Source of the DNA: Escherichia coli
GTDB lineage: Bacteria > Pseudomonadota > Gammaproteobacteria > Enterobacterales > Enterobacteriaceae
Strand: one strand, 5' to 3'
NCBI RefSeq assembly: GCF_003334385.1
Contig: NZ_QOWN01000026.1
DNA: 64,000 nucleotides
The translations under genes and the position numbers were made by a program. The number at the start of each line of letters is the position of its first letter. Position 1 is the stretch's first letter. Shown piece after piece: positions 22,197 through 24,707 of this stretch. Under the pieces are notes generated by a model. It made no database searches. It was not told the origin of the DNA and saw only the letters and a list, made by a program, of their open reading frames with translations.

Positions 22197-22538
22197 ATGC
22201 GCTGTAAAACGCTGACTGCTGCAGCAGCAGTACTATTGATGTTGACCGCAGGCTGTTCCACTCTGGAGCGAGTGGTTTACCGTCCTGACATCAACCAGGG
22301 GAACTATCTGACCGCTAACGACGTATCCAAAATACGTGTTGGCATGACGCAACAACAAGTTGCGTACGCATTGGGTACACCGCTGATGTCCGATCCATTT
22401 GGTACGAATACCTGGTTCTATGTCTTCCGCCAGCAACCAGGTCATGAAGGTGTAACTCAGCAAACGCTGACGCTGACCTTTAACAGTAGCGGTGTGTTGA
22501 CCAATATTGATAACAAACCTGCGCTGAGTGGTAACTAA
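22197..22538 (+). CDS. bamE: Outer-membrane protein assembly factor BamE
   Basis: 113-aa ORF with lipobox (LTAGCS), recognised as BamE/SmpA. Confidence 0.93.
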
Positions 22539-22562
22539 TAATAAAGTTGCTCTCAAAGACGT

Positions 22563-22595
22563 TAAAAAAGGTGCTCAATGAGCACCTTTTTTCTG
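22563..22595. terminator. Bidirectional terminator between bamE and ratB
   Basis: Palindrome AAAAAAGGTGCTC-AATGA-GCACCTTTTTT. Confidence 0.75.
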
Positions 22596-22599
22596 TCTG

Positions 22600-22890
22600 T
22601 TATTTATTCGCTGATTTTTCTGCTCGTTGCCTGCGAAGCTCTTTCGGATCGGCAATGAGAGGGCGATAAATCTCCACCCGATCGCCATCATGCACACTAT
22701 CGCTTAGTTTTGCCGGACGGCTGTAAATGCCGACTTTGTTTTTAGTTAAATCGATATCGGTACGCAATTCCAGCAAGCCACTGGCGCGAATAGCTTCTTC
22801 AACCGTCGCGCCCTCCTGCAGCGTCACTCGCTGCAGGTACTGCTTCTCAGGTAGCGCATAAGCCACCTCAACGGCAATTTTACCTGGCAC
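22600..22890 (-). CDS. ratB: RatB (YfjF, UPF0125 RnfH-like protein)
   Basis: ORF track gives 124 aa; start placed at in-frame GTG 22890 (VPGKIAVEV...) to give 96 aa. Confidence 0.8.
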
Positions 22891-23356
22891 TGTAAACCTC
22901 TTTCGCACGAACCGTAAAAGCCTGGACCATATTAGCCGCCAGCTCTTTAAACACGCGACCAAAGGCGAGTTCAATCAACTTATTGGTAAACTCAAAGTCG
23001 AGATGAAACTCGATACGACACGCCTCCTGGCTCAGCGGCGTAAACTTCCATCCACCAATCAATTTCTTGAACGGCCCATCCACCAGATTCATAAGAATAC
23101 TTTGGTTACTGGTCAACTGGTTGCGGGTAGTAAACGTTTTGCTGATCCCAGCCTTAGAGACATCTACCGCCGCAGTCATCTGCCCAGGAGTGGACTCCAG
23201 AATCCGACTTCCGGTACAACCCGGCAAAAACTGAGGATAAGACTGAACGTCATTCACTAACTGATACATTTGCTCCGCGCTGTAGGGTACCAGTGCGGTC
23301 CGGCTAATCTGAGGCATAACAATTTCCATCAACAAAAATCCAACAAATAATATCAT
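22880..23356 (-). CDS. ratA: Ribosome-association toxin RatA (SRPBCC fold)
   Basis: 158-aa ORF recognised as RatA/YfjG; its stop overlaps the proposed ratB start by 11 nt. Confidence 0.9.
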
Positions 23357-23487
23357 TTATCCTGCTGTAAAAAAAACGCTATCCCGGCGCTGGGTAACAT
23401 CGGGTTCATGCTAAGATAGAGCCTTGTCCCCCGCAGGATTGATATGGGGTGTTTTCGATTTCAGATTACCGATGATTCACGACGCTT

Positions 23488-23970
23488 ATGACGAAGAAAA
23501 AAGCACATAAACCTGGTTCAGCGACCATCGCGCTTAACAAGCGCGCCCGTCACGAATACTTTATCGAAGAAGAGTTCGAAGCGGGACTTGCCCTGCAAGG
23601 CTGGGAAGTTAAATCCCTGCGCGCAGGAAAAGCCAATATCAGCGACAGCTACGTCCTTCTGCGTGACGGAGAGGCATTTCTGTTTGGCGCTAACATCACG
23701 CCAATGGCCGTGGCCTCCACGCATGTGGTGTGCGATCCTACCCGTACCCGCAAGTTACTTCTCAACCAGCGCGAACTGGACTCATTGTACGGTCGCGTCA
23801 ATCGAGAAGGCTATACCGTAGTGGCGCTCTCCCTGTACTGGAAAAATGCCTGGTGCAAAGTGAAAATCGGCGTCGCCAAAGGTAAGAAACAGCACGATAA
23901 ACGTTCAGATATCAAAGAGCGCGAATGGCAGGTGGATAAAGCACGTATCATGAAAAACGCCCACCGTTAA
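23488..23970 (+). CDS. smpB: SsrA-binding protein SmpB
   Basis: 160-aa ORF recognised as SmpB. Confidence 0.97.
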
Positions 23971-24184: not shown

Positions 24185-24547
24185 GGGGCTGATTCTGGAT
24201 TCGACGGGATTTGCGAAACCCAAGGTGCATGCCGAGGGGCGGTTGGCCTCGTAAAAAGCCGCAAAAAATAGTCGCAAACGACGAAAACTACGCTTTAGCA
24301 GCTTAATAACCTGCTTAGAGCCCTCTCTCCCTAGCCTCCGCTCTTAGGACGGGGATCAAGAGAGGTCAAACCCAAAAGAGATCGCGTGGAAGCCCTGCCT
24401 GGGGTTGAAGCGTTAAAACTTAATCAGGCTAGTTTGTTAGTGGCGTGTCCGTCCGCAGCTGGCAAGCGAATGTAAAGACTGACTAAGCATGTAGTACCGA
24501 GGATGTAGGAATTTCGGACGCGGGTTCAACTCCCGCCAGCTCCACCA
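24185..24547 (+). ncRNA. ssrA: tmRNA (transfer-messenger RNA)
   Basis: Starts GGGGCTGATTCTGGATTCGACGGG, ends GGGTTCAACTCCCGCCAGCTCCACCA; tag ORF GCA AAC GAC GAA AAC TAC GCT TTA GCA GCT TAA (ANDENYALAA) at 24274-24306. Confidence 0.97.
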
Positions 24548-24671
24548 ATCATGATTGGACGGTGTAAGGACAACACCAACAAAAACAGGAAGTTAGAAGT
24601 CTCAGCAAAACACCGACCAGACGGTGAGGAGACATAAAAGGATACGCAAAGGAGCCGCGGCTCCTGGTAAC

Positions 24672-24702
24672 ATGAAAGCCCACAGATGTGGGCTTTTTCG
24701 TT
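24672..24702. terminator. Terminator hairpin between ssrA and the 3' end of ypjA
   Basis: Palindrome AAAGCCCACA-GA-TGTGGGCTTTTT just before the ypjA stop at 24708. Confidence 0.7.
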
Positions 24703-24707
24703 GATGG

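Follow-up and report, generated by a model that had tools for sequence, protein, structure and literature searches.

Comparative sequence analysis of the ratB start codon and of the ratA-ratB overlap in Escherichia coli

In the E. coli DNA analysed here, a stretch of 64,000 nucleotides referred to as the window, ratA (yfjG, pasT) and ratB (yfjF, pasI) both lie on the minus strand between bamE and smpB. An initial annotation of the window had placed the ratA stop codon 11 nt inside ratB, provided that ratB starts at the GTG at 22890 and encodes 96 amino acids. It had set this form against an upstream start that would give a protein of 124 amino acids, and had proposed from the arrangement that the two genes are translationally coupled. 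The locus raises the question at which codon synthesis of RatB begins and whether it is tied to the translation of ratA.

Over positions 22540-23500 the window matches E. coli K-12 MG1655 at 100% identity, and each of the 5,426 complete E. coli genomes searched contains this region. For the identical K-12 DNA, RefSeq (PGAP) lists yfjF as a 291-nt CDS encoding a 96-aa "RnfH family protein" with an 11-nt ratA overlap. As RefSeq currently lists both the 96-aa form with its GTG start and the overlap, the finding was already known and is of little consequence by itself. Read on the minus strand, ratA ends in GCG AAA GAG GTT TAC AGT GCC AGG TAA, and GTG CCA GGT AAA ATT GCC opens ratB in the +1 frame; translation from this GTG to the stop at 22600 yields 96 residues. 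The longest ORF in the ratB frame starts at TTG 22974, encodes 124 aa and overlaps ratA by 95 nt. All figures of the initial annotation were thereby confirmed, and the short form is backed by RefSeq as well as by the comparative evidence given below. The features of the locus are collected in Table 1.

Table 1. Coordinates of the ratA-ratB locus and its flanking genes in the window, with the evidence for each feature.
Feature	Position	Strand	Basis or remark
bamE	22197-22538	+	
ratB / yfjF CDS, 96 aa, RnfH-family (ubiquitin-like beta-grasp) protein	22600..22890	-	RefSeq WP_001117838.1, NF002490, PDB 2HJ1
ratA stop TAA	22880..22882	-	read from sequence, ORF list, RefSeq
ratA/ratB overlap, 11 nt, GTGCCAGGTAA	22880..22890	-	ratB in +1 frame relative to ratA
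ratB start GTG	22888..22890	-	SD-linked NTG at equivalent position in 74/74 ratA-preceded loci
28-codon upstream extension of ratB frame (TTG 22974..22972), judged not translated as RatB	22891..22974	-	stops, substitution pattern, no SD
Shine-Dalgarno AAGAGG, 6 nt 5' of GTG, within ratA codons Lys-Glu-Val	22897..22902	-	read from sequence
Alternative in-frame GTG (102 aa, 29-nt overlap), judged not used	22906..22908	-	conservation, SD duplex
ratA (pasT / yfjG) CDS from Met14, 145 aa, Coq10-like START-domain protein	22880..23317	-	RefSeq 438 nt, NF007999
TGaTATTAT, extended -10-like promoter element of ratAB operon, overlapping the old "Met1" ATG (23356..23354)	23347..23355	-	hexamer assignment inferred
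smpB	23488-23970	+	

Two further observations concern the surroundings of the operon. A GC-rich 13-bp hairpin flanked by A/T runs lies at 22564..22592, where ratB and bamE converge. It was called by the scan on the plus strand, the T run of the minus strand being read from the sequence, and it is probably a bidirectional terminator shared by bamE and ratB. On the other side, the window departs from K-12 beyond ssrA (tmRNA, 24185-24547, plus strand), where intA sits in K-12. Here a minus-strand ORF at 24708-28484 encodes a 1258-aa autotransporter of the AIDA-I/Ag43 type (beta-barrel domain, E 3e-96), which suggests that another island occupies the integration site at ssrA (window 24185-28484).

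Four candidate start codons in the ratB frame were compared for the stability of their duplex with the anti-Shine-Dalgarno (SD) sequence. GTG 22890 had the strongest duplex (-6.5 kcal/mol), with -3.2 kcal/mol for GTG 22908, -2.2 kcal/mol for TTG 22974 and -0.9 kcal/mol for TTG 22962, on a regional background of -3.3 ± 2.7 kcal/mol.

The short form also agrees with the architecture of its protein family. RatB matched the NCBIfam model NF002490 with 154.1 bits (cut-off 75), residues 4-96 covering model positions 3-95 of 96, and PF03658 is precomputed for clusters of identical and near-identical RatB proteins. The alignment with PDB 2HJ1 (E 6e-28) likewise begins at residue 4. By these matches RatB is a bona fide member of the RnfH family (Pfam PF03658 / NCBIfam NF002490), and the ubiquitin-like beta-grasp fold is assigned by sequence similarity to the solved structures 2HJ1 and 8AHX_H (E 1.5e-13). 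The 28 additional residues of the 124-aa form matched neither NF002490 nor 2HJ1. Proteins of this family are about 90-110 aa long with few residues before the first beta-strand, as is the 96-aa form, which has 4 residues there versus 32 in the 124-aa form. Searching the 96-aa form against 1.84 billion representative proteins and taking the best 150 matches at the 50% identity level, we found at most 11 residues ahead of this strand (consensus I-x-V-E-V-x-Y-A) in 130 of the 150 representatives, with a mode of 4. As these N-termini were themselves derived from gene callers and are not fully independent, they support the short form but do not decide for it.

Stronger evidence came from the comparison of loci. 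Eighty loci from other species (Enterobacterales, Pasteurellaceae, Alteromonadales, Aeromonas, Photobacterium and some betaproteobacteria) were fetched via the family alignment and analysed together with the window, giving 81 loci. In 74 of them ratA lies directly upstream on the same strand, and in all 74 it overlaps ratB, by 4 nt (6 loci), 8 nt (41), 11 nt (23), 17 nt (2) or 20 nt (2); an intergenic gap between the two genes did not occur among these 74 loci. Overlaps of 4, 8 or 11 nt account for 70/74. The 17-nt overlaps are formed via an SD-linked GTG in two Citrobacter loci (L003, L004), and those of 20 nt belong to two Pectobacterium loci. Most Enterobacterales have the 8-nt overlap, and the Escherichia/Citrobacter/Enterobacter group has that of 11 nt. 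These two states differ by a 3-nt indel that adds or removes one residue in each protein (...SAR* / MPGK versus ...SA* / MPD). An NTG codon was present 3-5 codons before the first strand in 74/74 loci, or further upstream where RatB has an N-terminal insertion, and of the 71 loci tallied 55 start with GTG, 15 with ATG and one with TTG. This arrangement goes beyond chance. In two loci, Acerihabitans arboris (L048) and an Alteromonadaceae MAG (L072), the SD-linked GTG with its 11-nt overlap stands 56 and 34 codons, respectively, before the first beta-strand, which implies either an N-terminal insertion in RatB or the use of a later internal start.

The remaining seven loci, all from Pasteurellaceae (L054, L055, L057, L058, L062, L063 and L074), contain a solitary ratB with no ratA within 1.5 kb. 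Each of these ratB genes carries an SD of its own, with the ATG placed 3-5 codons ahead of the strand; the frame upstream of this ATG is open for only 4-11 codons in five loci, for 20 in L054 and for 114 in L062. As no ratA overlap constrains these genes, their short N-terminus is evidence for the short form that is free of the overlap. In L055 the solitary ratB follows a gene for a ModC-like ABC ATPase after a gap of 62 nt.

The SD of ratB is conserved along with its start. A 4-nt SD core was found within -16..-4 of the ratB start in 61/71 loci, and Enterobacterales nearly always have GAGG there, separated from the start by 6 nt. The GAG of this core is the Glu codon of a conserved C-terminal RatA motif, K-E-V-Y, and its final G opens the Val codon. 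Wherever RatA has Glu at this position the codon is GAG (53/53 loci). Among the other Glu codons of ratA and ratB in the same loci, 47% are GAG (568 GAG, 635 GAA). The nominal binomial P for this bias is 5e-18; the common ancestry of the species inflates its significance, and we use it as no more than a nominal figure. The third position of the adjacent Val codon varies freely (T in 61%), so the invariance of GAG is not simply due to lack of divergence. Choice between synonymous codons maintains the SD core within ratA. A change from GAG to GAA at this codon would be silent in ratA and would destroy the ratB SD.

The comparison also bears on the upstream starts. The 84 nt 5' of the proximal start were analysed in 48 Enterobacterales-like loci. 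Initiation at TTG 22974, with its 124-aa product and 95-nt overlap, is the reading that a longest-ORF rule would choose, and extended RatB forms do occur in a few database entries, such as a 120-aa protein from Klebsiella (P0024). However, the extension frame is closed by a stop within fewer than 28 codons in 19/48 loci, 13/48 have no in-frame upstream start at all, and a start codon at the E. coli TTG position with an open frame was present in only 16/48. When the same nucleotides are translated, the extension frame shares 47% of its amino acids with E. coli and the ratA frame 85%, and the column entropy at the three ratA codon positions (0.36/0.23/1.23) is the signature of a single frame, that of ratA. 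The extension thus evolves solely as part of ratA and does not code for RatB. In addition, TTG 22974 lacks an SD, and RefSeq does not use it. Judged by conservation, substitution pattern and SD strength together, a start at this codon is extremely improbable and is effectively excluded.

A start at GTG 22908, either as the sole start or for a minor second proteoform of 102 aa, is hardly more probable. It is in frame and has the same GTG codon as the proximal start. Nevertheless, it is present in only 13/48 Enterobacterales-like loci, where the ratA codons CGT-GCN incidentally create it and Arg must be encoded by CGT. Its SD is poor as well, the nearest AGG being 12 nt away. Conservation and SD strength led us to reject it.

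On a further reading of the junction, ribosomes reaching the end of ratA would undergo a programmed +1 frameshift and produce a RatA-RatB fusion protein. Its appeal lies in the +1 position of the ratB frame, in the rare AGG codon just before the ratA stop and in four fusion entries of 125-191 aa from metagenome and Logan assemblies (P0001, P0002, P0006 and P0009). Each of these entries, however, comes from a single contig and they carry indels at differing places of the junction, which makes errors of sequencing or assembly their most likely origin, rather than frameshifting. Moreover, no junction codon could re-pair after slipping by +1 (GCC to CCA, AGG to GGT), and the sequence of the junction is not conserved between the 8-nt and the 11-nt groups. 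With indel artefacts in place of genuine fusions and without a slippery site, the probability of frameshifting is negligible and it was rejected.

Taken together, comparative evidence and the match with RefSeq strongly support GTG 22890 as the start of ratB. The supplements of TRAINSPOTTER, TetRP, the ribosome-signature study and the Salmonella riboproteogenomics study contained no data on the N-terminus or initiation of yfjF/ratB.

Over-extension affects ratA as well. NCBIfam NF007999 matched RatA with 305 bits (cut-off 258), its 144 positions corresponding to residues 14-157 of the 158-aa form and to residues 1-144 of the 145-aa form. An ATG aligned with Met14 (23317..23315) is present in 69/69 loci, and the frame upstream of it is open for at most 5 codons in 30 of these 69. 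TetRP reports a new yfjG start at +39 nt, i.e., at Met14. According to published work, only the Met14 form of RatA is made, and the longer form causes the reported "toxicity" (PMC11988751). The 158-aa ratA ORF (22880-23356) is therefore an old mis-annotation and the real start is Met14. This over-extended N-terminus stood behind a decade of misleading "toxin" literature, and the locus is one at which longest-ORF calls call for caution, the 124-aa RatB ORF and the 158-aa RatA ORF both being too long.

The ratAB genes form a bicistronic operon transcribed from a sigma-70 promoter, whose -10 box lies within the old ratA annotation and whose transcription start site is downstream of Met1 (PMC11988751). 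Upstream of ratA the pattern TGnTAnnAT was conserved by eye across the Enterobacterales loci. The TG of the "Met1" ATG resembles the TG of an extended -10 element, which would explain why this ATG persists in some species.

With both starts placed, translational coupling of ratB to ratA, as proposed in the initial annotation, is plausible. According to the literature, one ratA-ratB transcript is made from the sigma-70 promoter just 5' of ratA Met14. On this transcript the ratB ribosome-binding site (AAGAGG, 6-nt spacer) is set in the last ratA codons, Lys-Glu-Val-Tyr, and ribosomes that end translation of ratA halt 8 nt beyond the ratB start. Part of RatB synthesis would then come from coupling, either by termination-reinitiation or by a local supply of ribosomes, with ratB being read from GTG 22890..22888 into the 96-aa RnfH-family protein. 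Such coupling would tie the output of RatB to that of RatA. We somewhat favour the view that GTG 22890 yields the 96-aa RatB and that part of its synthesis occurs through coupling to ratA. Coupled pairs are co-directional genes whose stop and start codons lie within a few nucleotides of each other, and this is the arrangement found (11 nt here, 4-20 nt in the 74 loci). The length of the overlap is compatible with termination-reinitiation.

The same GTG could instead be used independently of ratA, with free 30S subunits initiating on the SD of ratB itself and co-transcription as the only link between the two genes. The overlap would then reflect no more than a compact packing of genes. This alternative is a real possibility, although we consider it rather doubtful. 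The ratB SD is good and stands at optimal spacing, and in the minimum free energy (MFE) and centroid structures it is largely unpaired. No RNA structure hiding the ratB start was detected in the 121-nt region examined, whose MFE of -33.9 kcal/mol is close to the shuffle mean of -34.9 kcal/mol (z = 0.29). Coupling by unfolding of RNA is not supported on this ground, the start region being free of occluding structure. With its own SD and without significant structure, ratB could be initiated by free 30S subunits independently. The solitary ratB genes of Pasteurellaceae, with their own ATG and SD, point the same way and indicate that RatB can be expressed without ratA. Overlap length matters too. 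The configurations enriched among coupled pairs have overlaps of -4, -1 and -8, the last of which is already less efficient than the other two (PMC10666635, PMC12548453), and distances of -8..+10 are held predictive of termination-reinitiation (Huber et al.; PMC10666635, PMC12548453). The ratA/ratB overlap of -11 falls just outside this predictive window. Furthermore, no functional or physical link between RatA and RatB was found in published studies (PMC7424257; bioRxiv 10.64898/2026.05.04.722385). Against independent initiation stands the short overlap, which is kept in 74/74 ratA-ratB loci across gamma- and some betaproteobacteria. In addition, coupling has been seen at gene pairs that lack structure and possess an SD (review PMC12548453).

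Some data on expression bear on the coupling of ratB to ratA. A consensus scan for a minus-strand promoter inside ratA, which is a weak test, found none. The Keio deletions are reportedly built on the annotated ORFs. A ratA deletion made on the annotated 158-aa ORF would probably also remove the -10 box of the operon promoter. The single experimental result that hints at coupling is that deletion of ratA cuts RatB strongly (log2FC -6.75; bioRxiv 10.64898/2026.05.04.722385), but because the -10 box lies inside the deleted ORF this drop is confounded, and effects on transcription and on translation are inseparable in it. As far as Schmidt et al. are quoted in PMC7424257, a cell contains about 30 copies of RatA and about 50 of RatB, and the similarity of these numbers would speak for coupling.

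What RatB does "remains elusive" in the recent literature, where physiological RatA (Met14) is described as non-toxic and as a bacterial homologue of Coq10, a ubiquinone shuttle (PMC11988751; PMC7424257; bioRxiv 10.64898/2026.05.04.722385). The overlap and the embedded SD might be kept by selection for co-synthesis at a fixed ratio, with RatB serving RatA/Coq10, the ubiquinone shuttle, as a physical partner or as an adaptor that possibly links it to the Rsx/Rnf complex. We regard this idea as unlikely; if true, it would provide RatB, an orphan protein, with a function. The homology of RatB to RnfH, together with a two-hybrid assay in which a Legionella RatB/RnfH-like protein bound a homologue of RnfB (PMC11445079), suggests RsxB, from the Rsx complex of E. 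coli, as a possible binding partner of RatB.

Among characterized systems, a homologue of RatB is the RnfH subunit in the Rnf1 complex from Azotobacter vinelandii (PDB 8AHX chain H), which aligns with residues 7-78 of RatB and is likewise a small, cofactor-free cytoplasmic protein. The RnfH gene, however, belongs to an rnf operon and its product binds RnfB and RnfC, whereas the RatB gene follows ratA. Type II toxin-antitoxin modules, from which the names ratA and ratB historically derive, are also made up of two small overlapping genes in one operon, but the order of ratA and ratB is reversed compared to most of these systems. A role of RatB as a type II antitoxin has been rejected by the recent literature, since physiological RatA is non-toxic, ratB can be deleted without loss of viability, and a RatA-RatB complex was not found (PMC7424257; PMC11988751; bioRxiv 10.64898/2026.05.04.722385).

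In gene organization the locus resembles the overlapping pairs that are coupled by termination-reinitiation (-4 ATGA, -1 TGATG and -8, e.g., in the trp operon). These are also co-directional with a short overlap, and as in ratA-ratB the downstream SD lies inside the upstream coding sequence and the overlap is kept across taxa; the E. coli ratA-ratB overlap differs in being -11 instead of -4, -1 or -8. In E. coli K-12 the yfjF/ratB and ratA/yfjG genes share the 96-aa CDS, the GTG start and the 11-nt overlap with the window, which diverges from K-12 only further downstream, past ssrA. The pasT-pasI operon of uropathogenic E. coli CFT073 is orthologous, and pasI was cloned from it with its "original GTG" (PMC7424257). 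It differs by a few synonymous changes, such as GTC for GTT in the spacer, and the primers used for pasI (GAGGTCTACAGTGCCAGGTAA) show that SD, GTG and overlap are kept (PMC7424257).
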